Of a DNA stretch of 64,000 nt, positions 2,596 to 26,218 are shown one piece after another. This stretch comes from Flavobacteriaceae bacterium (lineage in GTDB: Bacteria; Bacteroidota; Bacteroidia; Flavobacteriales; Flavobacteriaceae), in assembly GCA_965178635.1 (NCBI GenBank), contig CBCXVT010000020.1, positions 2,991-66,990 on the forward strand. The letters run 5' to 3'. Every line of letters starts with the position of its first letter. Position 1 is the first letter of the stretch. A program made the position numbers and the translations under genes. The notes below the pieces were generated by a model. It was not told where the DNA came from. It searched no databases and saw only the letters and a program-made list of their open reading frames with translations.

Positions 2596-3132
2596 ATGAA
2601 TTCAAATATAATTTCTTCAAATTTTAAAAAAGGTAAAAACTTTAACATTGGTCATTTTTGCATTATAGAAGATGGTGTAGAAGTTGGTGATAATGTTTCA
2701 ATTGGTAATTATACCATTTTGCATAAAGGAGTCAAAATTGCAAGTGATACTGTTATAGGGAGTTATTGTGAAATAGATTCTGAATGTGATATTAGAACTA
2801 ATGTCATCGTACAAGGCCGTATAAGAATGGGGAATAATTGTTTAATTGAAAAAAATGTGACAATAAAATACGGAACAATCCTTACATCAAATGTACTTTT
2901 AAAAGAAAACTGTTTTTTAGGTCCTAATGTAATAACGTTAGGTTCTACACATAAACGTATAACAGTACATGGAACTATAATTGGTAACAATACATATATA
3001 GGTGCAGGTAGTAAAATTGCAGGAGGTATAAGCATTGGAAATGATATTACTGTAGGTGCTTTAAGTTTTGTAAATAAGAATATAGAGGATCAAGGTGTAT
3101 ATGTTGGTGCTCCATTGAAAAAACTCAGATGA
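2596..3132 (+). CDS. Hexapeptide-repeat acetyltransferase
   Basis: 178 aa, made almost entirely of hexapeptide repeats. Its stop overlaps the next start in an ATGA arrangement. Confidence 0.7.
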   Translation: MNSNIISSNFKKGKNFNIGHFCIIEDGVEVGDNVSIGNYTILHKGVKIASDTVIGSYCEIDSECDIRTNVIVQGRIRMGNNCLIEKNVTIKYGTILTSNVLLKENCFLGPNVITLGSTHKRITVHGTIIGNNTYIGAGSKIAGGISIGNDITVGALSFVNKNIEDQGVYVGAPLKKLR

Positions 3133-4175
3133 GTCTTATGGAAACGAATAAAGTCACTTTAAGTATATGTTGTATCACGTATAATCAAGAAGCCTTTATA
3201 AAAGAAACTTTGAGTGGTTTTTTGAAACAAAAAGTTAACTTTATAATAGAGATTATTATTTATGATGATAATTCAACAGATAATACTAGGGAATTACTTC
3301 AAGATTTTAAAGCGAATTGTGTTTTTCCAGTAACATTACTTTTAGCAAAAGAAAATAGATATTCAAAGGGTGATCGTATATTCCCAAAAACTTTTAAGGC
3401 AGCAAAAGGCAAATACATCGCCTTATGTGAAGGCGATGACTATTGGACGGATCCTTTAAAACTACAAAAACAAGTTGACTTTTTAGAGGCTAACAGAGAT
3501 TATGCATTAGTGTTTACAAATGGACAAGTTGTGTACACCAACACACATGAACCGTCTCATTTAATATATAATAATACAAGTCATTCCACTACGTCATATA
3601 GAGTGTTTAATTTACCAGAAGAAACAACAGATATTTATAAACTAGCTAAAGGGAATTACATACATACAGCTGGGGTTGTGTTTAGAAATTGGATAATAGA
3701 ACAGGGAGTGCCAGAATATATGTATCGAGTAACTATTGGAGATTGGCCTCTGCACATGATGACGGCAACTAAAGGGCTTATTAAATATCTTGATGAAGAT
3801 ATGTTTTGCTATCGGGTTCACGATGTAGGGGTTTATTCAAAAAAGACAGCGCTACAAAAAAACCAAATGACTTTAGGGCAATTTCCTCCTATTCTAAACT
3901 CAAATTATTTTGAGAACAGTGTTAGAGAAGTTATTGAAACCTATTGCCTTAAAAGCTCTAAAAGTTACCTTAGTGCTTGTAAAACGGGTAATGATTTTCA
4001 ATTTTTTACTGATTTTTCAGGATCTTTTGATTCTAATAATGAAGTCTTAAATAATAAGTTATTACAGCTTTTAGATAAAAGAAACCAAAACCAAAATAAA
4101 GTCTTAATACAACCAGTATATTTGCGTTTGCTTAAAAGGATAAAACGATACATTAAAAAAATATTAAAATTATGA
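3129..4175 (+). CDS. Family 2 glycosyltransferase
   Basis: N-terminal LSICCITYNQEAFI...IIYDDNSTDNT followed by a DxD-like CEGDDYW. Confidence 0.75.
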   Translation: MSLMETNKVTLSICCITYNQEAFIKETLSGFLKQKVNFIIEIIIYDDNSTDNTRELLQDFKANCVFPVTLLLAKENRYSKGDRIFPKTFKAAKGKYIALCEGDDYWTDPLKLQKQVDFLEANRDYALVFTNGQVVYTNTHEPSHLIYNNTSHSTTSYRVFNLPEETTDIYKLAKGNYIHTAGVVFRNWIIEQGVPEYMYRVTIGDWPLHMMTATKGLIKYLDEDMFCYRVHDVGVYSKKTALQKNQMTLGQFPPILNSNYFENSVREVIETYCLKSSKSYLSACKTGNDFQFFTDFSGSFDSNNEVLNNKLLQLLDKRNQNQNKVLIQPVYLRLLKRIKRYIKKILKL

Positions 4176-5164
4176 TAGGAGCCTTTACCATTTGTGCAAA
4201 CAACTATTTAGCGCACGCCAAAACTTTAGCAATTTCTTATAAGGCGCAGCATCCAGATCATACTTTTGTAATTGCTATTTTAGATGCTCCTTGCAGCGAA
4301 ATAGATTACAACACTTTAGGAGCCGATGAAGTACTGTGGATTCCTGAAATGTTACCAGAATTAATAGAGAACCTAAAAAATACTTATGGTATTGCCGAGC
4401 TATGTACCGTTGTTAAGCCTGAATTGTTTGCCAGTTTATTTGCGAGAGGCTATAAAAACGTATTATATATAGACCCAGATATTAAAGTGTTTTCACCTTT
4501 AAAGGAGGTTTTTACAGCTTTAAAAACCAATCAAATGGTACTAACACCGCATATTTGTAGTCCAACTGGGGAAGTAGGACATCCGTTGGATAAGGATTTA
4601 ATGCGAACCGGAATTTATAACCTAGGTTTTTTAGCAGTAAAGCACACGCCTGAAATTGTAGAGTTTGTGGCTTGGTGGGACAAACGTGTAAAAGCTTTCG
4701 GCTATCATGATTTGAAGAAAGGTTTTTTTTATGATCAAATTTGGTTAGGGTATGGCCCCGCATTTTTAGATAAAGTATACGTTTTACGTCATTTAGGGTA
4801 TAATGTTGCCAATTGGAATTTGCATGAACGAAACATTTTGAGTGTTAATGGGCAGTATTTTATTAACGACGACCATACGCCACTTAGATTTTTTCATTAC
4901 AGTCATTTTAAAATGGAAAACCTGCCTGCGATAGCATCATATAACCAGAATTTTAATTTAGAGAATAGACCTGATATTGCGTCAGTTTTCAATTTGTATA
5001 AAGAGAACCTCATTGAAAATGGTTATGTAGCACTAAAAAAAATAAACTACACATTTGGTAAGCAACCTGAAATTAAAATTGTGGTTGATAAAACAAAATT
5101 TAGTAAGGTAAAACAGGCAACAGCGCATTTTAAAAAAGGTGTGAAAATACTATTAGGAAAATAA
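4172..5164 (+). CDS. Hypothetical; possible nucleotide-diphospho-sugar transferase
   Basis: 330-aa intact ORF translationally coupled within the PS operon. No motif that I can name with certainty. Confidence 0.3.
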   Translation: MIGAFTICANNYLAHAKTLAISYKAQHPDHTFVIAILDAPCSEIDYNTLGADEVLWIPEMLPELIENLKNTYGIAELCTVVKPELFASLFARGYKNVLYIDPDIKVFSPLKEVFTALKTNQMVLTPHICSPTGEVGHPLDKDLMRTGIYNLGFLAVKHTPEIVEFVAWWDKRVKAFGYHDLKKGFFYDQIWLGYGPAFLDKVYVLRHLGYNVANWNLHERNILSVNGQYFINDDHTPLRFFHYSHFKMENLPAIASYNQNFNLENRPDIASVFNLYKENLIENGYVALKKINYTFGKQPEIKIVVDKTKFSKVKQATAHFKKGVKILLGK

Positions 5165-8513: not shown

Positions 8514-9339
8514 ATGATAATTAATGGAAGAAACGGTTTAACTGAACAATTATATACAGCAATTTTAGCCGCTCTAGAAGCAGGCGAAGCCATCATGAAC
8601 GTGTATGATAGCCCCGATTTTGGTGTTGAAATTAAAGACGATAAGTCGCCATTAACTCGTGCTGATAAGTATGCAAATGACATTATCAATACCTATTTAA
8701 TTCCTACTCAGATTCCGATAATTAGTGAAGAAAATAAACAAACAGACTACGCCACACGTAAAGAATGGCAACAGTGTTGGATTGTGGACCCTGTAGATGG
8801 AACAAAAGAATTCATTAAACGTAACGGAGAGTTTACGGTCAATATCGCTTTAGTTACCAATGGAGGTGCCTGAGTTAGGGGTGATTTATGTGCCGGTAAC
8901 AAAAACGGTATATGTCGCTGAAGTATCTACGCAAACGGGGTATAAAGCAACAGTTGAATCTCATCGTGCATCTATAGAAGATGTTATAGCAAAAGCAGAA
9001 CAATTACAACCTAAAAAAGTGTCAAATTCTGTTGAGGTAGTTGGGAGCAGATCACATATGAGTACCGAAACGGAACAGTATGTGGAAGCTTTAAAACAAG
9101 AAGGAAAAGAAGTGTCTATAGTGTCAAAAGGAAGTTCCTTAAAGTTTTGTTTGGTAGCTGAAGGAAACGCCGATGTCTATCCGCGCTTTGCACCTACAAT
9201 GGAGTGGGATACTGCTGCTGGACAAGCGATTTGTAATGCGGTTGGTGTTGCAGTCATTTCCGAAGCAACAAAAGCGCCATTACTATATAATAAAGAAAAT
9301 TTATTGAACCCTTGGTTCATCTGTAAATATGAAGGATAG
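8514..9339 (+). pseudogene. cysQ: 3'(2'),5'-bisphosphate nucleotidase CysQ, split by a frameshift near 8866
   Basis: WIVDPVDGTKEF and EWDTAAGQAI motifs. It is read as two overlapping ORFs (8514-8873 and 8860-9339) in different frames. Confidence 0.75.
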
Positions 9340-9611
9340 TTCTAAAAAACGACATATTGCCAAAACAATTACTTGGCGTGTTATTGCTTCCGTGTACAAC
9401 GTTCGTTATTGCATATTTGTTTTTTAAAGAAGACCCTATGGCAACTGAAAAAGCCACTGGTGTTGCATTAACAGAATCTGTTATTAAAATGGGCTTATAT
9501 TATTTTCATGAACGGTTTTGGTATGCAAATCTAATTTTGGATTGCCAACCTCACGAAAAAACCAACAAAAAGATAGCTAATGGAAAAAAATATTATTCCA
9601 CAAAACTATAA
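9329..9611 (+). pseudogene. DUF2061-like small membrane protein, frameshifted near 9395
   Basis: MKDSSKKRHIAKTITWRVIAS in one frame continues as TTFVIAYLFF...LYYFHERFWY in another. Confidence 0.5.
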
Positions 9612-10202
9612 AGTATCTGTAGCTCAGATCGAAGAAAAAAAAATAAACACAATTCACTTTGTAGATATGGTTTACAGGGCTTGTCAGGTTCTGGAAAATC
9701 AACCATAGCTAAGTCTGGTAGAACAGCGTCTTTTTGAACAGGGGATATCGCAACGTATGCCTTAGATGGAGATAATATAAGAGGATGGTATCAATAAAAA
9801 TTTGAGTTTCTCAGCCCTGAAGACAGATCAGAGAATATTCAGGACGAATAGCAGAAATATCAAACTTAATGGTTGATGCAGGTTTAGTCGTGTTTGGCTG
9901 CATTCATATCGCCTTATAAAAATGATAGAGAGCAATACGTAAAGAAAGACTAGTGAAAGATGTTAACTTTGTTGAGGTATTATGTCAATACGTCTGTGGA
10001 GGAGTGTGAGCGTAGAGATGTCAAAAGGCTTGTACAAAAAAGCGCGAGCAGGAGAAATTACAAAACATGACGGGAATTTCGGCACCTTATGAAGCGCCAG
10101 AAAACCCAGATATAGAAATACTAACACTGAACAACGAAACAATAGAGCAAGCTGTAAATAAAATTAGTGGCCTACATAACACCAAAATTGACAAGTGTCT
10201 AA
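9580..10202 (+). pseudogene. cysC: Adenylyl-sulfate (APS) kinase CysC, many frameshifts
   Basis: The P-loop WFTGLSGSGKSTIA is readable only if an extra g at 9683 is skipped. LDGDNIR, ISPY, GLYKKARAGEI and GISAPYE pieces lie scattered over all three frames. Confidence 0.75.
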
Positions 10203-11112
10203 TGAGTAAGTATTATTTAAATTATTTAGATGAATTAGAAAGTGAAGCCATCTTTATTTTAAGAGAAGTATGGGCACAATTTCAAAACCCAGTCATACTT
10301 ATTTTCTGGAGGGAAAGATTCTATTTTAGTCACGCACTTAGCTAAAAAAGCATTTTACCCAAGTAAAATACCATTCTCATTAATGCATGTAGATACAGGG
10401 CATAATTTTCCTGAAACGATTCAGTTTAGAGATGATTTGATAAAAGAGTTTGGAGTAAACTTAATTGTAGGCTCTGTGCAGGAGTCAATTGATGAAGGCA
10501 AAGTAGCCGAAGAGAAAGGTAAAAACGCCACAAGAAATGCCTTGCAAATAACAACGCTTGCTTAGATGCTATTGAGTTGCATAAGGTAGATTGCGCTATT
10601 GGTGGCGGACGTCGTGATGAAGAGAAAGCTACGAGCAAAAGAACGTTTCTTTTCACATAGAGATGATTTCGGGCAATGGGATCCTAAAAATCAAAGACCA
10701 GAATTATGGAACTTGTTAAATGGTAAACACTTTGAAGGCGAGCATTTTAGAGCTTTTCCAATAAGTAATTGGACTGAAATGGATGTTTGGAATTATATAA
10801 AACGCGAAAATATTGCCATTCCTTCCTTATACTATGCACACGAACGTGAAGTGGTATGGAGAAGTAATTCATGGATTCCAAACTCTGAATTTTTACTATT
10901 AGAACCGCATGAGGAAGTAGTGACTAAAAAAATACGATTCAGAACTTTAGGAGACATTACCATTACTGGAGGGATGGAATCTGAAGCGGATACACTTAGA
11001 AAAAATTGCCATTGAAGTTGCAGCCATGCGCCAAACGGAACGTGGAAATAGAACTGACGATAAGCGTTCTGAATCTGCAATGGAAGATAGAAAGCGCCAA
11101 GGGTATTTTTAA
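10202..11112 (+). pseudogene. cysD: Sulfate adenylyltransferase subunit 2 CysD, at least 4 frameshifts
   Basis: The PP-loop FSGGKDS is readable only after skipping an extra a at 10301. HVDTGHNFPE, GGGRRDEEKARAKERFFSHRD and WDPKNQRPELW are split over several ORFs. Confidence 0.8.
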
Positions 11113-11172
11113 AATGAATTATAAAGAAATCTGTTTTTTAAAAACAGATTCAGAGGATATAAAACAGCAGAC

Positions 11173-12445
11173 ATGTTAGATAATAATCAATTATTGCGTT
11201 TTACAACAGCAGGGAGTGTAGATGATGGGAAGAGTACCTTGATTGGACGCTTATTATACGATTCAAAATCAATTTTTGAAGACCAGTTAGAGGCTATAGA
11301 AATCTACAAGTAAAAAGAAAGGCCACAAAGGCGTTGATTTAGCCTTGTTTACAGATGGCTTGCGTGATGAAAGAGAACAAGGAATTACTATTGACGTGGC
11401 TTACCGTTATTTTACTACGCCTAAACGTAAGTTTATAATAGCAGACACACCTGGGCATATTCAATACACCACGAAATATGATTACCGGAGCATCTACAGC
11501 TAATGTGGCTACCATATTAATTGATGCACGACATGGTGTAGTAGAGCAAACCAAACGCCATACATTCATTGCGTCATTATTACAAATACCGCATATCATT
11601 GTCTGTATCAATAAAATGGATTTAGTAGATTTTTCAGAAGAGGTGTTTACTAAAATTGTAGCTGATTTTGAAGAAGTAGCCTCTAAAATGATGGTTAAAG
11701 ATGTACGATTCATTCCAATGAGTGCCTTATTAGGCGATAATGTTGTGACACCGCTCTGAGAATATGAACTGGTACCAAGGGGCACCCATGTTACATACTT
11801 TAGAAACCATGCACATTAGTAGTGATGTTAATAAAGTAGATGCGCGTTTTCCGGTACAAACGGTATTACGTCCACAAAATGACACACATAGAGACTATAG
11901 AGGCTATGCTGGACGATTAGCTAGCGGAACATTACGTGTGGCAGATGAAGTAACTGTATTGCCGTCAGGGTTTACATCAAAAATAAAAACGATAGATACC
12001 TTTGATGAATCACTAAAAGAAGCATTCGCACCTATGTCTGTTTCTGTAACTTTAGAGGATGATGTAGATGTGGGTAGAGGGGATATGATAGTGCGTTCAA
12101 ACAATATACCAGACTGCAGTCACAAGATATTGAGGTGATGTTATGTTGGTTGACATAATGCAGCCATCAAAACCAAGGACTAAATATACCAGTCAAGCAT
12201 ACCTCTAATGATCAAAAAGCAATGATTAAAGAGCTAGTGTTATACGTAATAGATATCAATACATCTCAGTAGACGTGTACTGCTAGGTGATGCTACTTTA
12301 GAAATGAATGACTATTGCTAAAGTAAAAATTAGAACAACTAAACCACTGCTGGTAGATTCTTACAGAGAGAATAGAGCTACAGGTAGTATTATTTTAGTT
12401 GATGACGCTACTAATGAAACAGTGGCAGCTGGAATGATTGTGTAA
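11173..12445 (+). pseudogene. cysN: Sulfate adenylyltransferase subunit 1 (GTPase) CysN, at least 5 frameshifts
   Basis: The G1 motif [15 protein letters not shown] is intact. DTPGH and NKMD motifs and the C-terminal ATGSIILVDDATNETVAAGMI are recoverable only by changing frame. Confidence 0.8.
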
Positions 12446-12461: not shown

Positions 12462-13310
12462 GTCATATCGACGTCAGGAGATATCTTATCGAGTTGATTT
12501 AAACAGGATTCTGGTGATTTCGACTTTAGGAGAAATCACATCTGAGTAAGTGTATTTGAGTGGTTTCTTGTGATATTCATTATGTGATTTCTCACTCCAC
12601 TTTGTTTCGTTTCGAAATGACACCGTGTATTATTTTGTGTATAACCATTTACGAATTTGTCAATTCGACGATAGGAGAAATCTCATCCAGTTCGATAAAG
12701 AGGTTCCTTGTCATTTCGACGTTAGGAGAAATCTCACAAGATGCTAAAGTTGCTATAACTATACAAAAGGATTAACTATTAACTATGTCAAACAGGTATT
12801 TTACTTATATCGTTACAAATAAATCCCGAACTACACTTTATATTGGAGTAACTAATAATATTCAAAGACGATTATCAGAGCATTATCCTGATAGTCAAAA
12901 CGCTAAAAGTTCTTTTGTAAGTAAATACAATTGTTATGACTTCCCGTATTACGAGACATTTGAATGTGTTAATACAGCCATTCTTAGAGAAAAAACACTT
13001 AAATACTGGAGCCGAGAAAAGAAAAATCAGCTAATTAGATTGTTCAATCCTAGCTGGGAGAGTTTGAATAACCAAATATTCTAACAGATATATTACTCAA
13101 CGTCATGTCGACGTCAGGAGAAACTTCATTCTTGTTGCTTTGTCCATTCGTCTTGTCATTTCGACTTTAGGAGAAATCTCATATTCTTGTTTTCATACAA
13201 CCTTGTCAGTTCGACTTCAGGAGAAATCTCATTCACTTTGTAACATTGTCATTGGTTCCATTGTCATTGGTTCCATTGTCATGTCGACGGTATGAGACAG
13301 CTCATTCACA
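12462..13310. repeat. Cluster of 9 copies of a ~30-nt hairpin-type element (consensus about GTCATTTCGACnTnAGGAGAAATCTCA)
   Basis: Copies start near 12462, 12514, 12584 (inverted, longer variant), 12658, 12708, 13101, 13153, 13203 and 13276. The arms are ATTTC and GAAAT. Confidence 0.8.
12785..13084 (+). CDS. GIY-YIG nuclease-family protein
   Basis: YFTYIVTN...LYIGVTNNIQRRLSEH matches the GIY-YIG N-terminal signature. 99 aa. Confidence 0.8.
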   Translation: MSNRYFTYIVTNKSRTTLYIGVTNNIQRRLSEHYPDSQNAKSSFVSKYNCYDFPYYETFECVNTAILREKTLKYWSREKKNQLIRLFNPSWESLNNQIF

Positions 13311-13825
13311 TGTTTATAGGGGGGGCTTGCCCCGTAAATGTTAATAGAAGTCCGCATCCATAAGCTTAACGTAATTTCGGTTATCATTCCAACAGTGGTA
13401 GTGTTTAGCGTATAGTCAGCCAATAGTACCGTACTCAAAGGGGCATTTGTATTGAAATCAAAGCCTTTTAATAGTGCTTTTCCTTCCAATGTTGCTAGTC
13501 CTATACTTACATTTCGTTGTCCCCTAACTGAGGTTTCATCGGTATTTTTAACCTTGCTTAATGTTTGCATTATTCTAGAGGACGTTCTGCCGTCTTTTGC
13601 GTCTGTAAGTAATGTCAACATCGCCTTTCGGAGCACTTTTCCCATTTTGGCACAATGCCCGAACTCTGCGCCATTCTCTCGAGTACGTGCATAGGCCGGA
13701 TCTGTTGCCATACGTTGTTTACTAACGCCGCCCTTAGTACGCACCAAGTAACCATCTTTTGTTTTATAGAAGGTCAACCCGTCTAAGGTACCTTCTAACT
13801 TAATTAGGCTTCTTAATTTTGCCAT
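13229..13825 (-). pseudogene. Uncharacterised MAK..GT.DG..FYK family protein, copy A, 3' part replaced by repeat sequence
   Basis: The first ~150 aa align with copies B and C. The remaining C-terminal third is a translation of the hairpin element and a 15-nt tandem repeat (MTMEP x2.6). Confidence 0.6.
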
Positions 13826-14118: not shown

Positions 14119-14363
14119 TGTAAACACCATTCTAAATAATACAAACTGCGCACTAGTGAAATCAATAAATACGAATTCAAATACATGGTAATCAGTTAGT
14201 TAGTCTTGTTTTTTTAAATATTTTGATAAATGAGTGTTGAAAACTGCTGTTTGAAAACGTTACGTTTACCATTCTAAAAGTGTAATTTGTAATAGCTTGT
14301 AAGCATAAGATTTGAAATCTAAGGGCTATACTTTACAAGCAGATTGTCAATAGTAAACACACA

Positions 14364-14561
14364 ATGCATAGAATTTGTATACATACAAAAGAAGTACAAA
14401 TCATTACGGGTAAAAGTGAGCGAACAGCAAGGACTGTTATAAATGATATTAAAATTACTTATAACAAACAAAAGCATCAAGAAATCACTATTCGTGAGTT
14501 TTGTGACTATATGGATTTTCCATATGAAGAGGTGTATCAAATGATTAACCCTAAAAAATAA
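14364..14561 (+). CDS. Small (65 aa) HTH-like DNA-binding protein, module A
   Basis: Paralog of 24398-24604 and 49278-49485. Shared pattern: CI..K(D/E)(V/I)...TG(K/R).ER..R....IK....K..HQ...I.EF..Y. Confidence 0.55.
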   Translation: MHRICIHTKEVQIITGKSERTARTVINDIKITYNKQKHQEITIREFCDYMDFPYEEVYQMINPKK

Positions 14562-14754
14562 TAATAAACTCCTAAAACAAATGAACCAAATAGTTAAACA
14601 CTCTTTGAACGTCTCTAAAGCCTAGGGCAACGACATAAAATGCCGATGAAACGTATAAGTGTTTTTAGCAGTGATATTGTTAAGGGAATGCACTTAAAAA
14701 TAGCCCTTGGTTTACTATATTAGCCACTCAATTTTATAAAGCATTCCAATAGTA

Positions 14755-15687
14755 ATGACGCCATTAGTGTCCATAATCATACCAACGTACAATCGTGCGC
14801 ACCTAATATGTGAAACGCTAGATTCTATAATAGCACAAACCTATACCAATTGGGGGTGTATTGTGGTGGATGATGGCAGTATAGATGAGACTGCTATTGT
14901 AATGAATGCTTATATAAATAAGGACAGTAGGTTTCAACTTCATAAACGACCTACTCATAAACCAAAAGGAGCTAATGCGTGTAGAAATATAGGTTTAGAG
15001 TATGCTACAGGTGATTATGTTGTTTTCTTTGATAGTGATGATTTAATGTCTCCAAACCATTTAGAGGTTAAGGTGAGTGCTATGCAAATTCATAATTGTG
15101 ATTATGTGATTACAAAAACGAAGTTTATTGATGATGTGAAAAAGGTAGCGGGTAATAACTATAGGTTTAATACTTATCCTTTAACTGCATTTAATTATGT
15201 CTCACAAGCTTTAAACTGGCTTACTTACGATGTTTGTATAAAAGCGAAGTTAGCAAAATCTATTCAGTTTAACGAGTTGTTACAATCAGGGCAGGAGTAT
15301 AATTATTTTTCTAAATTAGTACATGTGTCGATAAACGCTCAATTTATTGATGAAATTGTTACATTAAGGCGGTATCATGAAACTTCAATACGAAGTAAAC
15401 TAGATACATCATATAAAAAACAAGAAAGTGCTTTTAGAGCCAAATGGTATACGTACTGTGACTTAATAACTATTGCAGATATAGAAACTAAGCGAAATCT
15501 ACTAGCAAAGTGTGTGACTATAGTTTATGATAGTAAACAAATATTAACACCTGATAAAATAAGGTTTTTAAAAGCAATATTTAAGGAATACAAATGGAAA
15601 GGAAGTTATTTTTTGTTAATGTTGTTAAACAGAAAACTGTTTAATAGAGGGTATATTTTTTTTAAAAAATTAACAGTACAAAATTAA
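14755..15687 (+). CDS. Family 2 glycosyltransferase
   Basis: VSIIIPTYNRAHLI...VVDDGSIDET and FDSDD (DxD) motifs. Confidence 0.8.
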   Translation: MTPLVSIIIPTYNRAHLICETLDSIIAQTYTNWGCIVVDDGSIDETAIVMNAYINKDSRFQLHKRPTHKPKGANACRNIGLEYATGDYVVFFDSDDLMSPNHLEVKVSAMQIHNCDYVITKTKFIDDVKKVAGNNYRFNTYPLTAFNYVSQALNWLTYDVCIKAKLAKSIQFNELLQSGQEYNYFSKLVHVSINAQFIDEIVTLRRYHETSIRSKLDTSYKKQESAFRAKWYTYCDLITIADIETKRNLLAKCVTIVYDSKQILTPDKIRFLKAIFKEYKWKGSYFLLMLLNRKLFNRGYIFFKKLTVQN

Positions 15688-17368: not shown

Positions 17369-18487
17369 ATGAGCTTAAGTAATACAATTAGAGTAGTACA
17401 GTTATTTGAAAGCTATCCGCTTTTTTACCAACCTTATATTCCGCCAGTTATAGCGGCCTTAGGTCAAGAACAAAGTCTAGAGCTTCGCATTAATGCTTTT
17501 AAAGGGACAGCAGATAATGGTGTTGAAATTTTACCGTCGTATTATAAACGAAAACTAAAAGAGAAGTTTTATGCGTTGAGGCATAACACTAAACTCAATT
17601 ACGCCGAAATACAATATATAAAACAAGGAGTCGATGTTGTGCATTTGCAACACTCATTTTTGTTTTCAAAAGTGAAAGGCTTATTGGCATTGCCAAATAA
17701 TGAACGACCAAAAATAATAATAACCCTTCGAGGTGGCGATACCTATGTTAAGCCTTGGTTATCTGAAAAATGGCAGGATTTTTATGCCAATTATGGCAAT
17801 CTGGTTGATGGATTCATCACCATGAGCCAACATCAAAAACAATACCTGAATGAAAAATGGGGGATAAACCCCAATAAAATTCATGTCATTCCAATTTCAT
17901 GTGTCAACCCTCCTGAAATACAAGCTAAATACCCAAATTCCAATACAATTAAAATAGTATCAGCGTTTAGAATGTGTTGGGAAAAAAACATAAATGGAAA
18001 TCTAAAAGTAATCAAGTATCTAAAGGATAAAGGGATAAATGTACAGTACCATATCTATGGTAGTGGTCCCGATGCTGGGCAACTAATGTTTTTAATTGAT
18101 AAGTACAAGCTCCAAAATAACGTCACCTACCACGGTAAAGTTGAAAATACAAGATTAAAAAGTAAATTGCATAATTCTGACATCTATTTGCAATTAAGCC
18201 ATTCGGAGTCTTTAGGGATGAGCGTTATTGAAGCTCAAGCTTGTGGACTGCCAGCAATTGTATCAAATAGCGGAGGATTGCCTGAAGTGATTATAGATAA
18301 AGAAAGCGGCTATTGTGTAGGGACTCATGAAACAGAACGAGCTGCAGAATACATATATGAACTTTGGAAAAATAAAGAAACGTACAAAGTTTTTTCTGCT
18401 AAAGCCATTGAAAATAGCCAAGGCTTTTCTGTTGATGTTGAGGTAGATAAATTAACGGCACTTTATAAGAAAATCACACAATTGTAA
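17369..18487 (+). CDS. Family 4 glycosyltransferase
   Basis: SESLGMSVIEAQACGLPAIVSNSGGLPEVI signature. Confidence 0.8.
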   Translation: MSLSNTIRVVQLFESYPLFYQPYIPPVIAALGQEQSLELRINAFKGTADNGVEILPSYYKRKLKEKFYALRHNTKLNYAEIQYIKQGVDVVHLQHSFLFSKVKGLLALPNNERPKIIITLRGGDTYVKPWLSEKWQDFYANYGNLVDGFITMSQHQKQYLNEKWGINPNKIHVIPISCVNPPEIQAKYPNSNTIKIVSAFRMCWEKNINGNLKVIKYLKDKGINVQYHIYGSGPDAGQLMFLIDKYKLQNNVTYHGKVENTRLKSKLHNSDIYLQLSHSESLGMSVIEAQACGLPAIVSNSGGLPEVIIDKESGYCVGTHETERAAEYIYELWKNKETYKVFSAKAIENSQGFSVDVEVDKLTALYKKITQL

Positions 18488-19677
18488 TGATGCCAAAATC
18501 GTTAAAAATCATTATCTTCGACGGTAGTTTTAAAACCACACCGTTTATAAACCGCTTACTAGAGGGGCTAGTACATAACCAGCACAAAGTATATGTCTTA
18601 GGGTTTAATGAAGCGTTAACTACAAAAATTGCCCAAGTGAACTACGTGCCACTTGGGAGCAATCAAAACAAATGGCGTTTAATAGTAACAACGCTTAAAT
18701 TATATTGGACTAATAAAAATAAAGCCAGTGTATGTCAAGCATTAGGTAACCTAATAAAAGGAAAACGAACTGACATACAGAAACAAAATGTGCAGTTTGC
18801 TATAAATAAAATTAAACCAGATGTTATACACGCGCAATGGACATCTGTATTACCTTGGCTTGAAGAAATTTTAGAAGCTCAAAAGATACCGGTAATCTTA
18901 AGTCAAAGAGGCTACCATTCCAATATACGGCCATTTGTAAATCAAGATAATTTCAATTATTTAAAACATTGGTACCCCAAAATAGCAGGATTTCATTCAG
19001 TGTCCAAAGCCATATCAAAAAAAGGAGATGATATTTATAAGGCTACAGATAAAAAAAATCATGTGGTTTATACCGGAATTGATTTTGAGAAGTTACCTTT
19101 TAATAAGTCATTACCAACCACCAAAACATTAGAGGTCATTTCTGTAGGTCGCGCCCATTGGATTAAAGGCTATGATAATGCCTTACAATCTTGTCAACTA
19201 TTAAAAGAGCAGGACATAGACTTTAAGTACACCATTATTGGTGCAGCTGGAGATGAAGAGTTACAGTTTTTACGTCATGATTTGGGTTTAGAAAATCACG
19301 TGAATCTTATTGGGCGTTTACCTCAAGAAGATGTGTTTAAGCGCATGCAAAACGCCAATGTACTAGTAGTATCTAGTATAGCTGAAGGCGTACCTAATGT
19401 GGTAGTGGAAGCTATGGCCTTGGGTGTGCCGGTAATCAGCACGGCGTGTGGAGGTGTGGAAGAACTGATTGAAAATAATACCAACGGCTGGTTAGTACCA
19501 ACCAGAAACCCAAAAGCACTTGCTGAGGCACTTATAAAATTCAATCAATTACCAAAGTCTACTATAGAAAATATTAGAATTTCAGCACACAAAAAAGTAG
19601 AAGCACAACATTCAGAAACAAAAATGATAGCAGATATGGAAGCTCTATACAAAACTGTTATAAAAGCCAAAAGTTAG
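18487..19677 (+). CDS. Family 4 glycosyltransferase
   Basis: EGVPNVVVEAMALGVPVISTACGGVEELI signature. Confidence 0.8.
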   Translation: MMPKSLKIIIFDGSFKTTPFINRLLEGLVHNQHKVYVLGFNEALTTKIAQVNYVPLGSNQNKWRLIVTTLKLYWTNKNKASVCQALGNLIKGKRTDIQKQNVQFAINKIKPDVIHAQWTSVLPWLEEILEAQKIPVILSQRGYHSNIRPFVNQDNFNYLKHWYPKIAGFHSVSKAISKKGDDIYKATDKKNHVVYTGIDFEKLPFNKSLPTTKTLEVISVGRAHWIKGYDNALQSCQLLKEQDIDFKYTIIGAAGDEELQFLRHDLGLENHVNLIGRLPQEDVFKRMQNANVLVVSSIAEGVPNVVVEAMALGVPVISTACGGVEELIENNTNGWLVPTRNPKALAEALIKFNQLPKSTIENIRISAHKKVEAQHSETKMIADMEALYKTVIKAKS

Positions 19678-19762
19678 TTTATACCATCATTGCGAGTGTA
19701 GTGTAACGAAACGTTGCAATCTCTTTTTAATTATCAACACCTCTGGAACAACAATAACAACT

Positions 19763-22700
19763 GGCCTTCGCTATGATCTCGTAAAAAATGCGATGAAAAT
19801 GCCGTAAAAGATGATGCTGTCTGAGCGCAGTGAGTTCATCAGATTTAGGCGTCGAACAAAATTTTTAGAGACTATAGCGTCAGCCTAGCGTTTTTGGGTT
19901 CTTTTTTGGGCGATGCAAAAAAGAATAGAGCCTTAAAATAAAACGGGTAGTCTCTATAAAAAATCAGTAGTCAACCAGGTTTTGAAATTGTTTTTTAAGC
20001 AATAATAACTAAGAGTATCAAAATTAACTCTGCATTAAATTATCGGCCTTCGCTATGATCTCGTAAAAAATGCGATGAAAATGCCGTAAAAGATGATGCT
20101 GTCTGAGCGCAGCGAGTTCATCAGATTTAGGCGTCGAACAAAATTTTTAGAGACTATAGCGTCAGCCTAGCGTTTTTGGGTTCTTTTTTGGGCGATGCAA
20201 AAAAGAATAGAGCCTTAAAATAAAACGGGTAGTCTCTATAAAAAATAAGTAGTCAACCAGGTTTTGAAATTGTTTTTTAAGCAATAATAACTAAGAGTAT
20301 CAAAATTAACTCTGCATTAAATTATCGGCCTTCGCTATGATCTCGTAAAAAATGCGATGAAAATGCCGTAAAAGATGATGCTGTCTGAGCGCAGTGAGTT
20401 AATCAGATTTAGGCGTCGAACAAAATTTTTAGAGACTATAGCGTCAGCCTAGCGTTTTTTGGGTTCTTTTTTGGGCGATGCAAAAAAGAATAGAGCCTTA
20501 AAATAAAACGGGTAGTCTCTATAAAAAATCAGTAGTCAACCAGGTTTTGAAATTGTTTTTTATGCAATAATAACTAAGAGTATCAAAATTAACTCTGCAT
20601 TAAATTATCGGCCTTCGCTATGATCTCGTAAAAAAATGCGGTGAAAATGCCGTAAAAGATGATGCTGTCTGAGCGCAGCGAGTTCATCAGATTTAGGCAT
20701 CGAACAAAATTTTTAGAGACTATAGCGTCAGCCTAGCGTTTTTGGGTTCTTTTTTGGGCGATGCAAAAAAGAATAGAGCCTTAAAATAAAACGGGTAGTC
20801 TCTATAAAAAATCAGTAGTCAACCAGGTTTTGAAATTGTTTTTTAAGCAATAATAACTAAGAGTATCAAAATTAACTCTGCATTAAATTATCGGCCTTTC
20901 GCTATGATCTCGTAAAAAATGCTGTGAAAATGCCGTAAAAGATGATGCTGTCTGAGCACAGCGAGTTCATCAGATTTAGGCGTCGAACAAAATTTTTAGA
21001 GACTATAGCGTCAGCCTAGCGTTTTTGGGTTCTTTTTTGGGCGATGCAAAAAAGAATAGAGCCTTAAAATAAAACGGGTAGTCTCTATAAAAAATCAGTA
21101 GTCAACCAGGTTTTGAAATTGTTTTTTAAGTAATAATAACTAAGAGTATCAAAATTAACTCTGCATTAAATTATCGGCTTTCGCTATGATCTCGTAAAAA
21201 ATGCGATGAAAATGCCGTAAAAGATGATGCTGTCTGAGCGCAGTGAGTTAATCAGATTTAGGCGTCGAACAAAATTTTTAGAGACTATAGCGTCAGCCTA
21301 GCGTTTTTTGGGTTCTTTTTTGGGCGATGCAAAAAAGAATAGAGCCTTAAAATAAAACGGGTAGTCTCTATAAAAAATCAGTAGTCAACCAGGTTTTGAA
21401 ATTGTTTTTTATGCAATAATAACTAAGAGTATCAAAATTAACTCTGCATTAAATTATCGGCCTTCGCTATGATCTCGTAAAAAAATGCGGTGAAAATGCC
21501 GTAAAAGATGATGCTGTCTGAGCGCAGCGAGTTCATCAGATTTAGGCATCGAACAAAATTTTTAGAGACTATAGCGTCAGCCTAGCGTTTTTTGGGTTCT
21601 TTTTTGGGCGATGCAAAAAAGAATAGAGCCTTAAAATAAAACGGGTAGTCTCTATAAAAAATCAGTAGTCAACCAGGTTTTGAAATTGTTTTTTATGCAA
21701 TAATAACTAAGAGTATCAAAATTAACTCTGCATTAAATTATCGGCCTTTCGCTATGATCTCGTAAAAAATGCAGTGAAAATGCCGTAAAAGATGATGCTG
21801 TCTGAGCACAGCGAGTTCATCAGATTTAGGCGTCGAACAAAATTTTTAGAGACTATAGCGTCAGCCTAGCGTTTTTTGGGTTTTTTTTGGGGCGATGCAA
21901 AAAAGAATAGAGCCTTAAAATAAAACGGGTAGTCTCTATAAAAAATCAGTAGTCAACCAGGTTTTGAAATTGTTTTTTATGCAATAATAACTAAGAGTAT
22001 CAAAATTAACTCTGCATTAAATTATCGGCCTTTCGCTATGATCTCGTAAAAAATGCAGTGAAAATGCCGTAAAAGATGATGCTGTCTGAGCACAGCGAGT
22101 TCATCAGATTTAGGCGTCGAACAAAATTTTTAGAGACTATAGCGTCAGCCTAGCGTTTTTTGGGTTTTTTTTGGGGCGATGCAAAAAAGAATAGAGCCTT
22201 AAAATAAAACGGGTAGTCTCTATAAAAAATCAGTAGTCAACCAGGTTTTGAAATTGTTTTTTAAGCAATAATAACTAAGAGTATCAAAATTAACTCTACA
22301 TTAAATTATCGGCCTTCGCTATGATCTCGTAAAAAATGCGGTGAAAATGCCGTAAAAGATGATGCTGTCTGAGCGCAGCGAGTTCATCAGATTTAGGCAT
22401 CGAACAAAATTTTTAGAGACTATAGCGTCAGCCTAGCGTTTTTTGGGTTCTTTTTTGGGCGATGCAAAAAAGAATAGAGCCTTAAAATAAAACGGGTAGT
22501 CTCTATAAAAAATCAGTAGTCAACCAGGTTTTGAAATTGTTTTTTAAGCAATAATAACTAAGAGTATCAAAATTAACTCTGCATTAAATTATCGGCCTTC
22601 GCTATGATCTCGTAAAAAATGCGGTGAAAATGCCGTAAAAGATGATGCTGTCTGAGCGCAGCGAGTTCATCAGATTTAGGCATCGAACAAAATTTTTAGA

Positions 22701-22844
22701 GACTATAGCGTCAGCCTAGCGTTTTTTGGGTTCTTTTTTGGGCGATGCAAAAAAGAATAGAGCCTTAAAATAAAACGGGTAGTCTCTATAAAAAATCAGT
22801 AGTCAACCAGGTTTTGAAATTGTTTTTTAAGCAATAATAACTAA
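19763..22844. repeat. Non-coding tandem array, ~10.9 copies of a 282-284-bp unit
   Basis: Unit starts (ggcc(t)ttcgctatgatctcg) at 19763, 20045, 20327, 20610, 20893, 21176, 21459, 21743, 22027, 22311 and 22594. No ORF of 60 aa or more on either strand. Confidence 0.95.
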
Positions 22845-22908
22845 CGGAGTACGGCAATCTCATCAAATTAAATGCTTGTATAATGCGTACTGTCTTCTCA
22901 ATGGTATC

Positions 22909-22940
22909 AAAAAAAAGGGGATGCCCAATGCCATCCCCTT
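22909..22940 (-). terminator. Rho-independent terminator of MAK copy B
   Basis: Stem ggggatg/catcccc (22917-22923 / 22932-22938), followed on the minus strand by a T8 run. Confidence 0.7.
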
Positions 22941-22963
22941 TAAATTAATAAGCCTCAAAAACC

Positions 22964-23713
22964 TTACAAAACATCTAAAATCTGTAAAGCATTATATGCC
23001 CCATTACGTAACGGATACTGCACCCCATTAACCTCTTGAAAAAATGCAATTTTCAATAAGTAAATAGATGTACCAGTTCCAGTCGGTACCCCCAAGGGAG
23101 TTAAAGTTACAGGAGTAAGTACAGAATTGATAGCAGTATTAAAAACAGCACTCAATTGCAAATCTTTAAGTGCTGTACTAAAATCCAAATTCAAAAACCC
23201 GCAACTCAAGCTCACGTGTGTAGCACCTTCTGGTAAACCTAAATTCTGAAGGGGGATAAAATCACTGATCACCACCTCACCAGTAGCTGTATTCAAACTG
23301 TAGTCTGATAAAAGCACACTGCTTAACGGTGCTTGGGCATTAAAATCAAAACCTGATAAAGCCTCTTGCCCTGTAGCTGTTGAAAGCCCAGCCGATACCT
23401 GACGTTGTCCGCGTATAGACGTGAGATCAGCATTTTTAACACGACTCATCACTTGTGTCAATCGTGGTGTAACACTGGAATCTTTAGCATCTGTCAGTAG
23501 GGGCAAAATTGCTTGTCGCAACAGTTTGCCGCTAGTGGCACAATGCCCAAATTCCGTCCCGTTTTCTCGGGTGCGAATAAACGCAGGATCATTTTTAATT
23601 CGTTGAGCACTAACACCACCTTTGGTGCGTACCAAATACCCCTCTTTGCCCTTGTAAAAGGTAAGACCGTCCAGGGTGCCTTCAATCTTAATAAAGCTGT
23701 TTAATTTAGCCAT
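22964..23713 (-). CDS. Uncharacterised MAK..GT.DG..FYK family protein, copy B (intact, 249 aa)
   Basis: Shares MAK-IK-GT-FYK-KGGV-DPAF-RTRENG-EFG N-terminal blocks and a C-terminal FFQEVNG..Y.L.NG.YNAL block with copy C. Confidence 0.7.
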   Translation of the reverse strand: MAKLNSFIKIEGTLDGLTFYKGKEGYLVRTKGGVSAQRIKNDPAFIRTRENGTEFGHCATSGKLLRQAILPLLTDAKDSSVTPRLTQVMSRVKNADLTSIRGQRQVSAGLSTATGQEALSGFDFNAQAPLSSVLLSDYSLNTATGEVVISDFIPLQNLGLPEGATHVSLSCGFLNLDFSTALKDLQLSAVFNTAINSVLTPVTLTPLGVPTGTGTSIYLLKIAFFQEVNGVQYPLRNGAYNALQILDVL

Positions 23714-24129
23714 AATAGTATATGTTTTAGGAGTACAACAGAATTTTACAAAGTCTATATTGTAGAGCTATGCTAACACTCAATCTAATTAAGCAATTAG
23801 CTTAGGGATTTGAAATGAAATTCAGAAGCCTACTAAAAGTCTGTTGCACTCTTGGTTAATAAATATAAATCTGATAAAAACAGGACTCTAACTAATGTGT
23901 AGCGCGCACATGCATAGTACTCTACATGAATTAATGACACCAATATTAAAGAACTGTGATTCAGTCTTATAAACCTAAAACATATTGTGATACAAAGCAA
24001 GTACGCTATGTCGAGAAGTGCACATAAAGACCTATTTTATCGTATTTTTCCAGAATGTCCCAAAATTTCTGAAAATGACCAAAAGTGCCGTTTTTTGCTG
24101 ATAGAGTTTAATAAAACGGATGAAGATGA

Positions 24130-24173
24130 TGTATAGCTAATGTATGGATAGTGTATGCATACTGTATGAAAAA
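24130..24173 (+). promoter_or_regulatory. Four tandem 11-bp direct repeats, module B
   Basis: TGTATAGCTAA / TGTATGGATAG / TGTATGCATAC / TGTATGAAAAA at 24130, 24141, 24152 and 24163. Confidence 0.6.
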
Positions 24174-24397
24174 GACATATGTAGATGTTAGAGAATATAA
24201 AAAATACAAGAAAGAGGTATAGAACAGGCACGATTGTTGCTCCTGATAATTAAAGTCTAAAAAAGTAAACACATACCGTTTGAAGAGGAGTAATTTTGAG
24301 TATTGGAAGCAAGGCAATTGGATAAGGAAAAGAATATAGCTTTAACCAAACAGAACCTTGTAAAATCAATCCAAAATGTTAAAACCCAACAAACTCC

Positions 24398-24604
24398 ATG
24401 AAGAGACTTTGCATCTATGCCAAAGATGTACAGATGATCACCGGAAAAGGTGAACGTTTTGCACGCAAAATAATAAAACAAATTAAACAGAAACTAGGGA
24501 AGAAACCCCACCAGTTCGTATCGATAAAGGAGTTCTGCGATTATGTCGATTTGCAATACGAAGAAGTCTATTATACCATCAATAACAGAAAACCGCGATA
24601 TTAG
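24398..24604 (+). CDS. Small (68 aa) HTH-like DNA-binding protein, module B
   Basis: Paralog of 14364-14561. Lies directly upstream of, and co-oriented with, PS locus 3. Confidence 0.55.
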   Translation: MKRLCIYAKDVQMITGKGERFARKIIKQIKQKLGKKPHQFVSIKEFCDYVDLQYEEVYYTINNRKPRY

Positions 24605-24829
24605 ATGTAGTTAATAAAGTTGCTGTAAAGTTGTGCCAAGAAGTTGCATATGCTGTATTAAGAATATAAATCTTCAAAACTTCTCATTCTTTAGTGCGTA
24701 TCACTTGTACTAAAGAGATTATATCAGTATGTTTGTTTCAGTTCATAATATTTTTTTTTGAAGTACATAACCATAGCAATTGACGAGTAGTGACGCTGAA
24801 ATGCATATGTGTTAAACTGTCAACTCGTA

Positions 24830-26218
24830 ATGAAAACTATAAAAACCAATATAATCCCTGTTCAACCTACTTTTGCTAAAGTAAAAGCACCTCATGAATT
24901 AGATTATGAGGCAATTTGTATATTTGCTGCAACAGGGTTTTTTCTAGACCAAGACACCTATTGGAAAGATGAAAAAGTCTTACGTCCTGGCCATACCACC
25001 ACTATAGATGATGAGGGGTATATAATAAATAGTACGCCTTGGTTCAAATGGCACTACTCACCAAGAGACATTGATTTAAATCAAGCAGTGAACGAGTTTA
25101 CAAACTTATTTGAAACCATTGTTAAAGAACAAACACAAGGCAAGCAAGTCATTCTGCCGTTATCTGGTGGATTGGATAGCCGCTCACAAGCAGTGGCTTT
25201 AAAACAAGTCAAGGCTAAAGTAAATAGTTACAGTTATTCCTATCAAAATGGTTATGACGAAGCAGGGGTATCTCAAAAAATTGCTAAATGTTTAGAAATA
25301 CCATTTATAAAATATACAATCCCAAAAGGCTATCTATGGAGTAAAATTGAACAACTGGCTACAATCAATGGCTGTTATTCAGAGTTTACCCACCCTCGTC
25401 AAATGGCAGTAGCAGATGAACTTGGGCAACTTGGTGAGCTGTTTTCTTTAGGGCACTGGGGAGATGTGCTATTCGATGCTGATGAACTGCCTGATGAAGC
25501 TAATGAAAACAGTATAGCCTATCTTAAAAAGAAAATTATTAAAAAAGGAGGATTAGCCTTAGCGAACTCACTTTGGAATCAATGGCAGTTGGAAGGTGAT
25601 TTTGAAACCTATTTAGAAAAGAGACTACTAACACTCTGGCAAGCTATAGACATACAACAGAAGAGTGCTAAATTAAGAGCTTTTAAAAGTCTGTATTGGG
25701 CGCCTCGTTGGACCTCGGTTAATTTGGCTGTGTTTGAAAATGAACAACCTGTAACGTTACCTTATTACGACGATCGCATGTGTGAGTTCATTTGTACTGT
25801 GCCGGAAGCCCTGTTAGCCAACAGACAAATTCAAATAGAATACATCAAAAAGCGTAATCCTAAAATAGCTAAAATAGTATGGCAAGATAAACGCCCGTTT
25901 AATTTGTACAATTACTATTGGCATAAGTTTCCGTATAATTTCCCATATAGAGTAATTACAAAGTTGCAGCGTGTAATTAATGGAATGTTGAAAGCACCCC
26001 ATGTACAACGCAATTGGGAATTGCAATTTTTAGGACAAAATAATGATGACATGTTGAAGACGTACCTATACAATTCTAAACTCACAAGTTCAGTGTCTAA
26101 AGAGCTGATTAATCAATACTATAAAGCATTTAAAAACAAAGATCAAGTTGTTTTTTCACACCCTCTTAGTATATTATTAACTTTATCACTTTGGTATAAA
26201 AATAATGTAGATTTATGA
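24830..26218 (+). CDS. Asparagine synthase (AsnB C-terminal domain)-like ATP-pyrophosphatase / amidotransferase
   Basis: PP-loop LSGGLDSRS. The ATG at 24830 is preferred over the GTG at 24809 used in the track. Confidence 0.65.
   Translation: MKTIKTNIIPVQPTFAKVKAPHELDYEAICIFAATGFFLDQDTYWKDEKVLRPGHTTTIDDEGYIINSTPWFKWHYSPRDIDLNQAVNEFTNLFETIVKEQTQGKQVILPLSGGLDSRSQAVALKQVKAKVNSYSYSYQNGYDEAGVSQKIAKCLEIPFIKYTIPKGYLWSKIEQLATINGCYSEFTHPRQMAVADELGQLGELFSLGHWGDVLFDADELPDEANENSIAYLKKKIIKKGGLALANSLWNQWQLEGDFETYLEKRLLTLWQAIDIQQKSAKLRAFKSLYWAPRWTSVNLAVFENEQPVTLPYYDDRMCEFICTVPEALLANRQIQIEYIKKRNPKIAKIVWQDKRPFNLYNYYWHKFPYNFPYRVITKLQRVINGMLKAPHVQRNWELQFLGQNNDDMLKTYLYNSKLTSSVSKELINQYYKAFKNKDQVVFSHPLSILLTLSLWYKNNVDL

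Follow-up and report, generated by a model that had tools for sequence, protein, structure and literature searches.

The window analyzed here, a stretch of 64,000 nucleotides (nt) from a Flavobacteriaceae bacterium (assembly GCA_965178635.1, contig CBCXVT010000020.1, positions 2,991 to 66,990 of the forward strand), contains at 19763-22844 (+) a tandem array of 10.9 head-to-tail copies of a 282-284-bp unit, located at a junction between polysaccharide loci. Each unit begins with a structured intergenic element whose family is conserved in marine Flavobacteriaceae and previously uncatalogued. Upstream of the array, on the plus strand, lie genes for family 2 and family 4 glycosyltransferases (GT2 and GT4). 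The GT4 gene (18487-19677, +) is the last gene of the upstream polysaccharide locus, is co-oriented with the array, and is followed at 19688-19723 (+) by a small hairpin, CATTGCGAG...GCAATCTC, similar to repetitive extragenic palindromic (REP) sequences, which with its T-run extends to 19728 and provides a terminator-like end of the gene. On the right side, a gene for a conserved hypothetical protein of 249 amino acids (aa), a marker of polysaccharide-locus junctions, converges on the array (22964-23713, -); its strong intrinsic-terminator-like hairpin lies at 22914-22941 (-). Beyond the 249-aa gene there is a 68-aa open reading frame (ORF) and then a module consisting of an asparagine-synthase-like gene, a GT2 gene, a sulfotransferase gene and a GT4 gene. 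The array thus follows the end of one polysaccharide locus and precedes the next module, as the original prediction, made by a model from the letters and a list of ORFs, had placed it. On the right of the array (22845-26207) the sequence is 98-99% identical to metagenome contigs of its own species; on the left (18021-19760) identity is 86-88%, and further left there is no alignment. This drop falls exactly at the left edge of the array, which argues that the array marks the edge of a variable, serotype-like set of polysaccharide genes.

Tandem Repeats Finder describes the array by a period of 283, 98% matches, 0% indels and a score of 5874, and together with the sequence it gives the same unit starts as the original prediction. 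The units measure, in order, 282, 282, 283, 283, 283, 283, 284, 284, 284 and 283 bp, the differences stemming from the lengths of T and A runs; the unit length is not a multiple of 3. The last unit is cut at ataactaa/cgg, as had been noted, and measures 251 bp. The prediction that the array contains no ORF of 60 aa or more also holds, since the longest is 40 aa, and the array is non-coding. A column-by-column comparison of the units found 17 variable columns, among them all of the diagnostic variant sites named earlier. Units 3-4-5 match units 6-7-8 in a higher-order repeat, with 1 difference between units 3 and 6, 2 between units 4 and 7, and 6 between units 5 and 8. Between the adjacent units 8 and 9 there is 1 difference and between units 10 and 11 none; unrelated pairs show 8-11 differences, and no other pair has more than 11. 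These counts bear out the predicted 3-unit periodicity and the near-identity of units 8-9 and 10-11, and the pattern of variants fits the proposed expansion through unequal exchange. With its regular head-to-tail period, its lack of coding capacity and its variant pattern of unequal exchange, the array is a tandem-repeat satellite (macrosatellite). To that extent the satellite reading of the original prediction stands; the array is, however, not an isolated sequence, because the first ~175 nt of the unit belong to a dispersed family of conserved elements.

The 283-bp unit consists of this ~175-nt family core and a species-specific tail of ~108-119 nt. The cores, as delimited by a covariance model (R1, see below) and a family hidden Markov model (HMM), lie on the plus strand at 19763-19937, 20045-20219, 20327-20502 and 20610-20785 (units 1-4), 20894-21068, 21176-21351, 21459-21635 and 21744-21919 (units 5-8), and 22028-22203, 22311-22486 and 22594-22769 (units 9-11). 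The dominant structure of the unit is one long imperfect hairpin, here termed the rod, which occupies unit positions 1-123. In unit 2 the rod runs from GGCC to CAGCC (20045-20167, +), with the 5' arm cgctatgatctcgtaaaaaa, the 3' arm tttttagagactatagcg and the tip gatgatgctgtctgagcgcagcgagttcatc, as found both in minimum-free-energy folds and in the consensus structure with its compensatory changes. The gatga/tcatc and gctg/cagc hairpin of the original prediction proves to be the tip of this conserved rod and shows covariation. Directly 3' of the rod, the family alignments place a TAG and T-run, tagcgtttttggg (20168-20180, +), for which the family consensus is TAGAYTTTTTTTG and which looks like a terminator. 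A second, A/T-rich hairpin follows, TTCTTTTTTG-GGCGATG-CAAAAAAGAA (20181-20207, +), recovered by a hairpin search and conserved in the family alignments, where its loop contains a conserved CAATG; a variant form, GTTCGTTTTTTT..AAAAAAATGAAC, includes a G.U pair. This hairpin had been predicted as a perfect 10-bp stem of each unit; it is perfect in 9 units, with a chance expectation of none, and units 8 and 9 hold a variant with 2 mismatches. The tail of unit 2 (20220-20326, +), delimited by profile searches, includes a 32-bp inter-unit linker, gagtatcaaaattaactctgcattaaattatc, and has no homologue beyond contigs of the same species.

The first fold proposed for the unit had also nested the second hairpin within a pairing of 20144-20156 with 20230-20244. 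The complementarity is real, but it has no comparative support and its downstream arm falls in the non-conserved tail; the comparative data assign 20144-20161 to the 3' arm of the conserved hairpin, with the 5' arm at 20052-20071 as its partner. A partial second 5' arm in the tail, which would explain that pairing, was rejected (348 of 2000 shuffles reach the same value and the HMM gave no match), as was an origin of the linker as a diverged copy of the right flank, a similarity reached by 64 of 1000 shuffles. The folding energy of the whole unit is unremarkable relative to shuffled sequence (z = -1.5 on the plus and -1.7 on the minus strand), and the evidence for structure is therefore comparative rather than thermodynamic.

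The family to which the core belongs is dispersed, and its members are ~185-200 nt long, with a sharp 5' boundary at GGCC, a rod of ~125-160 nt with conserved internal loops, the T-run and the second A/T hairpin. When the array was masked and the rest of the window searched with a profile of the unit (nhmmer), one significant match was obtained, at ~54640-54817 (-) with E = 1.3e-7. This second, diverged single copy, which extends over 54625-54833 (-) and scores 186.7 bits with R1, lies between a decayed umuC and a gene for an S24 peptidase (UmuD-like), in the same orientation as both. Its pairwise alignment to the unit covers unit positions ~1-165, with an insertion of 33 nt at the tip of the second copy. 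Both hairpins are kept by two-sided changes, such as GATGATG...CATCAG in the unit and TTTCAGG...CCTGGA in the second copy. Two blocks that both copies conserve were combined into a pattern for scanning a metagenome collection, in which it detected 15 marine loci, each with one copy of the element, sometimes two, and with unrelated flanks; the same pattern had 0 matches in viral contigs. Family members are also present in Aestuariivivens marinum. An HMM built without the array units recovers 11 of the 11 units over unit positions 1 to ~178, with E values of 1e-21 to 1e-27. The calibrated covariance model R1, of 198 positions and 34 pairs, scores the units at 157-178 bits (E values of 1e-34 to 1e-39), and with filters off it finds no further credible match in the window beyond the units and the 54.7-kb copy.

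Searches for a known counterpart were negative. No Rfam 15 family, a set that includes self-cleaving ribozymes, 6S RNA, Flavo-1 and Pedo-repair, matches the window at its gathering threshold, and relaxing the limit to E values of up to 10 for the array units, the 54.7-kb copy and four consensus-like loci gave noise only. No tRNA or tmRNA was found, and neither the unit nor a consensus member matches phage and plasmid collections, apart from a 39-nt chance match. Literature searches gave nothing specific on a described Flavobacteriaceae repeat of the same kind. The original prediction had allowed for a unit that matches the end of a known insertion sequence (IS) or miniature transposable element with inverted repeats (MITE), or a vector, and for a repeat confined to this strain. 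Neither is the case: matches to Rfam, plasmids and phages are lacking, as is a target-site duplication, and conservation outside the strain is strong. We also observed that short G+C-rich hairpins, such as CCCGAAGCTTCGGG, CCTGCC..GGCAGG and GTCCTGAGCGGAGTCGAAGG, have inserted in several members (L005, L009, L010, L014 and L017; alignment columns 45-70, 100-145 and 210-270), either into the A/T hairpin, at the tip or in the 5' arm. These look like a separate class of tiny invasive palindromes.

The evidence for the structure of the core comes from comparison of family members. RNAalifold applied to 13 members gives one long imperfect hairpin from GGCC to GCC, then TAGAYTTTTTTTG and the second hairpin. 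In this alignment there are 41 pairs, 96.8% of the cells are paired, and 13 of the 41 pairs show double changes, a count reached by none of 500 shuffles. As a control, the 3' partners were slid by 1-3 columns, which lowered the share of paired cells to 27-51% and left 1-6 pairs with double changes. Addition of the sister-species and A. marinum copies gave an alignment of 18 sequences with double changes in 16 of 34 pairs, and again none of 500 shuffles reaches the value. The array unit is the most diverged member, and its lower stem is kept by wholesale compensation, CGCTAT..TCTC with GAGA..ATAGCG replacing the CGAA..TTTATC with GATAAA..TTCG of the consensus. The tip of the rod bears a poorly conserved extension of 31-35 nt in most members, which is absent in the array unit, L009a and L017.

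Where copies are orthologous, the element diverges far less than neutral sites. The window unit and the copy in a sister species (L026) are 90.1% identical over the element, and the adjacent 249-aa genes are 90.4, 92.0 and 60.8% identical at codon positions 1, 2 and 3. Likewise, L010 and L017 are 94.3% identical over the element, compared with 96.4, 99.6 and 67.2% at the three codon positions of a 703-aa gene. Orthologous copies of the element thus diverge at about the slow pace of first and second codon positions in neighboring genes. No ORF of at least 12 aa is common in frame or position to the 18 members on either strand. Because the element is conserved far above third-position identity and no small ORF is conserved, the core is under purifying selection as nucleic acid.

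Several observations bear on which strand folds. At Watson-Crick pairs of the alignment, the minority cells include ~20-31 G.U against 6 A.C; counted as independent events the excess is ~11 to 4, which is suggestive only. Six members have a G.U pair in hairpin 2 in common, and at the base of the rod the A and B copies of A. marinum differ by U-A/A-U against U.G/G.U. Of the 6 stem polymorphisms within the array, 3 toggle between forms that are neutral on the plus strand only (position 70, G-C/G.U; position 90, U.G/U-A; hairpin 2, C-G/U.G), and the polymorphism C76A breaks a pair. In ~12 of 15-17 independent loci the element lies 70-290 nt 3' of a co-oriented gene, the next gene being in either orientation. 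The two window copies are in opposite orientations, each matching its local genes, which favors a link of orientation to transcription over one to the direction of replication. Taken together, these comparisons point to the plus orientation of the unit as the folded strand.

Tandem amplification of the element has recurred independently outside the window. In the sister species (L026, whose 249-aa protein is 87% identical), the interval between the same two genes holds a tandem duplication with a period of 249 bp, at least 1.8 copies and a different phase. The order there is H-E-H-E-H, with a decayed remnant further on, where E is the element and H a small hairpin, CATTGYGAG..GCAATCTC, seen at 2200-2240 and 1960-2000. 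This is the order expected from unequal crossing-over between flanking H copies, and the H hairpins probably supplied the homology for this duplication. Arrays at the GT4/249-aa locus are thus older than the split of the two species and have turned over since. The cultured A. marinum (GCA_022662175.1, L019) possesses 4 copies at 14279-15624, between wza and an ABC-F gene and spaced 358-409 bp, and 2 copies at 9046-9606, 377 bp apart and directly upstream of its 249-aa gene. In both clusters the cores are nearly invariant and the spacers much more variable, and it is indels in the spacers that cause Tandem Repeats Finder to miss them. At L009 a degenerate copy (40-220) lies 427 bp upstream of a full copy (467-669). 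The family tends to cluster, and the arrays of the window species, L026 and A. marinum are all at polysaccharide-locus junctions.

The 249-aa protein is a conserved hypothetical protein of Flavobacteriaceae with 2370 homologues. Its gene, together with a small ORF, regularly heads a polysaccharide locus of the ABC-transporter type, where the gene converges on the end of a Wza/Wzc-type locus. Three independent family loci (the window, L016 and L014) adjoin a homologue of the gene, remnants of the element occur in L022, L023 and L026, and in A. marinum clusters of the element stand on both sides of the polysaccharide locus that adjoins it. An obligatory linkage of element and gene was nevertheless rejected: of 9 other genomes carrying the gene, 8 have no full element nearby, and A. 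marinum alone has full copies. The association is therefore with a kind of region and not with the gene. The 249-aa protein was also considered, and discarded, as a nucleic-acid-binding partner of the element; it matches no Pfam family, and its AlphaFold model, although good (pLDDT 81), has no fold match in PDB with E < 0.008. In the window, the 1.1 kb between this gene and the downstream module (23714-24808) is poor in ORFs, with just the 68-aa ORF at 24398-24604 (+), which by eye looks like a small helix-turn-helix (HTH) or excisionase-type protein. The equivalent stretch of A. marinum carries the 2-copy cluster.

On balance we consider it probable that the array was produced by unequal-crossover amplification of a functional structured intergenic element that acts as a folded plus strand. 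A copy resident between the GT4 and 249-aa genes would have been amplified along with adjacent DNA by unequal homologous exchange, single units first and then the 849-bp triplet. In the sister species the same site would have been amplified in a different unit phase, with the flanking REP-like hairpins as homology. The element itself would act as a folded single strand in plus orientation, most likely as RNA at the 3' end of transcription units or between them, where it could serve as a terminator, insulator or stabilizer-type module reached by read-through. The 11-fold amplification would be a by-product of high recombination at a polysaccharide-locus junction, providing at most insulation or homology for recombination, and is probably not a device in its own right.

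A number of observations weigh against this interpretation. The -7 box of Bacteroidetes-type promoters (TAnnTTTG) occurs neither upstream of any member nor on the plus strand of the array. The linker contributes one TAATTTTG per unit on the minus strand, without a -33 TTG and near the background of 0.8 per kb per strand, and a scan for sigma-70-type promoters was at background level. The array lies between the terminator-like hairpins of two convergent transcription units, so that RNA would arise by read-through only, and at several loci the upstream gene's own terminator precedes the element. As an intrinsic terminator of the classical kind the rod has a weak base (GGC/GCC, with 3 G-C pairs); the conserved T-run, of 5-7, comes after a gap of 4 nt, and a terminator scan did not flag the rod. 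Contigs of the same species assembled from short reads hold 0.9 copies (L001 and L002) or 1.9 copies (L003), which reflects either collapse in assembly or real variation. Finally, the strand asymmetry and the tolerance of G.T pairs would also fit a substrate of single-stranded DNA.

A bolder proposal, doubtful as we find it, is that the ~190-nt rod represents an undescribed class of functional RNA of marine Flavobacteriaceae that is produced from many loci. Tandem clusters at capsule and O-antigen borders would have been selected as copy-number-tunable RNA arrays, or as insulators, that control surface-polysaccharide modules or mark their points of exchange.

That single-stranded DNA is the substrate is the premise of another, rather unlikely, explanation, in which the family is a non-autonomous mobile element whose folded DNA strand is handled by a transposase in trans, in the manner of REPIN/RAYT or of palindrome-associated derivatives of IS200/IS605, and the clusters are landing or tolerance sites. 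The element is indeed dispersed, its boundaries are sharp and its flanks unrelated, its presence at orthologous sites varies from genus to genus, and it accumulates in gene-poor junctions; several metagenome contigs end inside it. Its lack of a target-site duplication is shared with HUH-type elements, and its strand-specific fold tolerates G.T pairs. No Y1/HUH transposase was seen near any copy, however, and phage and plasmid collections contain no match. Inside the arrays the spacers are duplicated with the element, which indicates duplication and not repeated insertion. Orthologous copies are conserved far above the neutral rate, a constraint that a parasitic element does not need, and a bias of replication strand would not predict that the two copies of the window are opposite, each following local transcription.

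More unlikely still, in our estimation, is that the array is a multi-copy cluster of non-coding RNA (ncRNA) genes, each unit, or a processed read-through multimer, yielding a rod RNA of ~130-190 nt that binds a protein or regulates polysaccharide expression, with copy number setting the dose. The near-complete conservation, which includes unpaired loops, the purifying selection far above that of synonymous sites, the fold supported by covariation and the T-run after the rod are all as expected of such genes. So is the recurrence of tandem clusters at polysaccharide-locus junctions in three taxa, and three family loci adjoin homologues of the 249-aa gene. Yet no member is preceded by a promoter motif, the array is enclosed by two terminators, and most members are single copies behind unrelated housekeeping genes. 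In addition, the 249-aa protein has no nucleic-acid-binding fold, and the gene occurs without a full element nearby in 8 of 9 other genomes.

A further view takes the array to be neutral junk, a satellite in which neither unit nor array is constrained. Its site between convergent genes, where insertions are harmless, the lack of conservation of the unit tail beyond the species and the unexceptional folding energy of the whole unit would all be compatible with neutrality. The core, however, shows compensatory evolution and conservation well above that of synonymous sites, and the family consensus is kept across genera, so that for the core this view is already largely refuted and as a whole it is very improbable. 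Finally, that one or two true copies were expanded to eleven by mis-assembly is hardly credible despite the 0.9 and 1.9 copies of the short-read contigs, since ordered, non-random variants with a 3-unit periodicity across 11 units are not made by mis-assembly, collapse to precisely the 0.9- or 1.9-copy paths is what de Bruijn graph assemblers are expected to make of such arrays, the inter-unit linker is found in an independent assembly, and a separate tandem duplication occupies this locus in the sister species. That independent assembly is a conspecific short-read metagenome-assembled genome labeled 'uncultured Kordia sp.', the only match among species-representative genomes to an array-specific 22-mer; it carries 1.9 copies at the same locus, with the 32-bp linker included.

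Flavobacteriaceae are major marine degraders of algal polysaccharide, and very few of their non-coding elements have been catalogued. The present family adds a testable element, for which the fold has covariance support, purifying selection is strong and a calibrated model is available, and associates it with the places where surface-polysaccharide loci join and serotype-like gene sets are exchanged. If the element is an RNA with a defined partner, it would constitute a new and widespread class of RNA; if not, it would offer a clean bacterial example of a constrained interspersed repeat that seeded a macrosatellite. The short-read assemblies of this species, with their 0.9-1.9 copies, probably collapse the array, and arrays of this sort would then be under-reported systematically.

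Other features of the window were noted in passing. Around the second copy of the element, umuC (54939-56196, -) is broken by in-frame stops and is followed by the copy and then by an intact S24 peptidase gene (54156-54608, -). Next come a 106-aa ORF and a gene for an SOS-response-associated peptidase (SRAP; 52709-53446, -). A component of an McrBC-family restriction system (62880-63974, -) and an AAA ATPase (56435-57778, +) are encoded near this region, which suggests that the right end of the window is a defense or mobile island. At a second junction in the window, a truncated paralogue of the 249-aa gene (13229-13825, -) is 68% identical over 144 aa. A 50-bp tandem repeat at 13102-13234 contains GTCATTTCGAC..GAGAAATCTC, a small REP-like hairpin. 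Further left, at 8514-12138, sulfate-activation genes appear fragmented. An inositol-monophosphatase/CysQ-like gene is split into ORFs at 8514-8873 and 8860-9339, and only partial ORFs remain for a phosphoadenosine phosphosulfate (PAPS)-reductase domain (10599-11015) and an EF-Tu domain 2 (11764-12138). This is probably a decaying gene cluster.

Several known types of repeat and RNA were compared with the family. A CRISPR array, with repeats of 23-50 bp and unique spacers, does not fit, because whole 283-bp units are repeated, including the sequence between elements. As a MITE the family was rejected, since the six members examined at both their 5' and 3' junctions are not flanked by a direct repeat. 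Like the attC sites of integrons and of clusters of attC sites lacking an integron integrase (CALIN), the element forms a strand-specific folded hairpin with a tip of variable length (3 nt to ~35 nt here) and occurs both in direct arrays with spacers and as lone copies. The RYYYAAC and GTTRRRY core sites are absent, however; the two ends of the element read GGCCTATCG...CGTAAGCCTAG, with no conserved GTT core. There are, moreover, no cassette ORFs and no integron integrase, the spacers of the array are duplicates of one another, and most copies are solitary behind housekeeping genes. The repeats of type I toxin-antitoxin systems, such as LDR and Ibs/Sib of E. coli, are likewise intergenic, structured and highly conserved, and they measure a few hundred bp, some of them standing in tandem. 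Membership in this class was discarded because no small ORF is conserved in frame or position across the 18 members.

One family copy lies just 3' of a dcas12f-like gene, on the marine metagenome contig ORDG01005108 (L009). The region 1466-4270 of this contig holds an HTH gene (1466-1858, -), a gene for an extracytoplasmic function (ECF) sigma factor (2152-2964, +) and a TnpB/Cas12f-like ORF that is truncated at its C-terminal end (2961-4055, +), and it looks like an rpoE-dcas12f locus of RNA-guided transcription (PMC13472631). The guide RNAs of such loci are 85-105 nt long, are encoded immediately after dcas12f and carry a 14-16-nt guide at the 3' end (Hoffmann et al. 2026, PMC13472631). The element was rejected as a guide RNA of this kind: it begins 81-104 nt after the stop codon, depending on the match used to define its start, has no variable 3' end and is of unfitting size. 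It is also found at many loci without rpoE-dcas12f genes.

The closest parallels are among interspersed repeats. The ERIC/IRU sequences of Enterobacteriaceae and the Correia elements of Neisseria are, like the present family, interspersed in intergenic regions and conserved across genera. They are imperfect palindromes of 100-200 nt, lie in transcribed or 3' regions, and have additional internal insertions in some copies; they are thought to act as RNA hairpins that affect mRNA ends. Our family has no sequence relation to them and belongs to another phylum, and it adds the T-run and the second hairpin. The rod, furthermore, is not a symmetric palindrome, its loops being conserved and asymmetric; it has neither a terminal inverted repeat nor the signature of a target-site duplication, and it forms direct tandem arrays.

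REP sequences, bacterial interspersed mosaic elements (BIMEs) and REPINs are structured extragenic repeats, often found between convergent genes, whose hairpins are kept by compensatory change and which can cluster in tandem (PMC3116915, PMC3333891, PMC2817692). The rod family shares with them the extragenic structure, the compensatory change and the tandem clustering. REPs, however, are G+C-rich palindromes of 20-40 bp, and BIMEs alternate in orientation, whereas the rod arrays are direct repeats of 250-400-bp units. In size, composition and direct orientation the rod family does not fit REP or BIME, and no RAYT gene was seen in the window and the loci; it is the small CATTGCGAG..GCAATCTC hairpin next to the array that resembles a REP more closely. 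The family lacks the defining features of a MITE, an attC site, a type I toxin-antitoxin repeat, a CRISPR array, a dCas12f guide RNA and every Rfam family. It behaves like the structured repeats of the ERIC, Correia or REP type, and we class it as a new family of interspersed structured intergenic repeats that is caught here in an unusually large tandem amplification and whose arrays recall BIME clusters.

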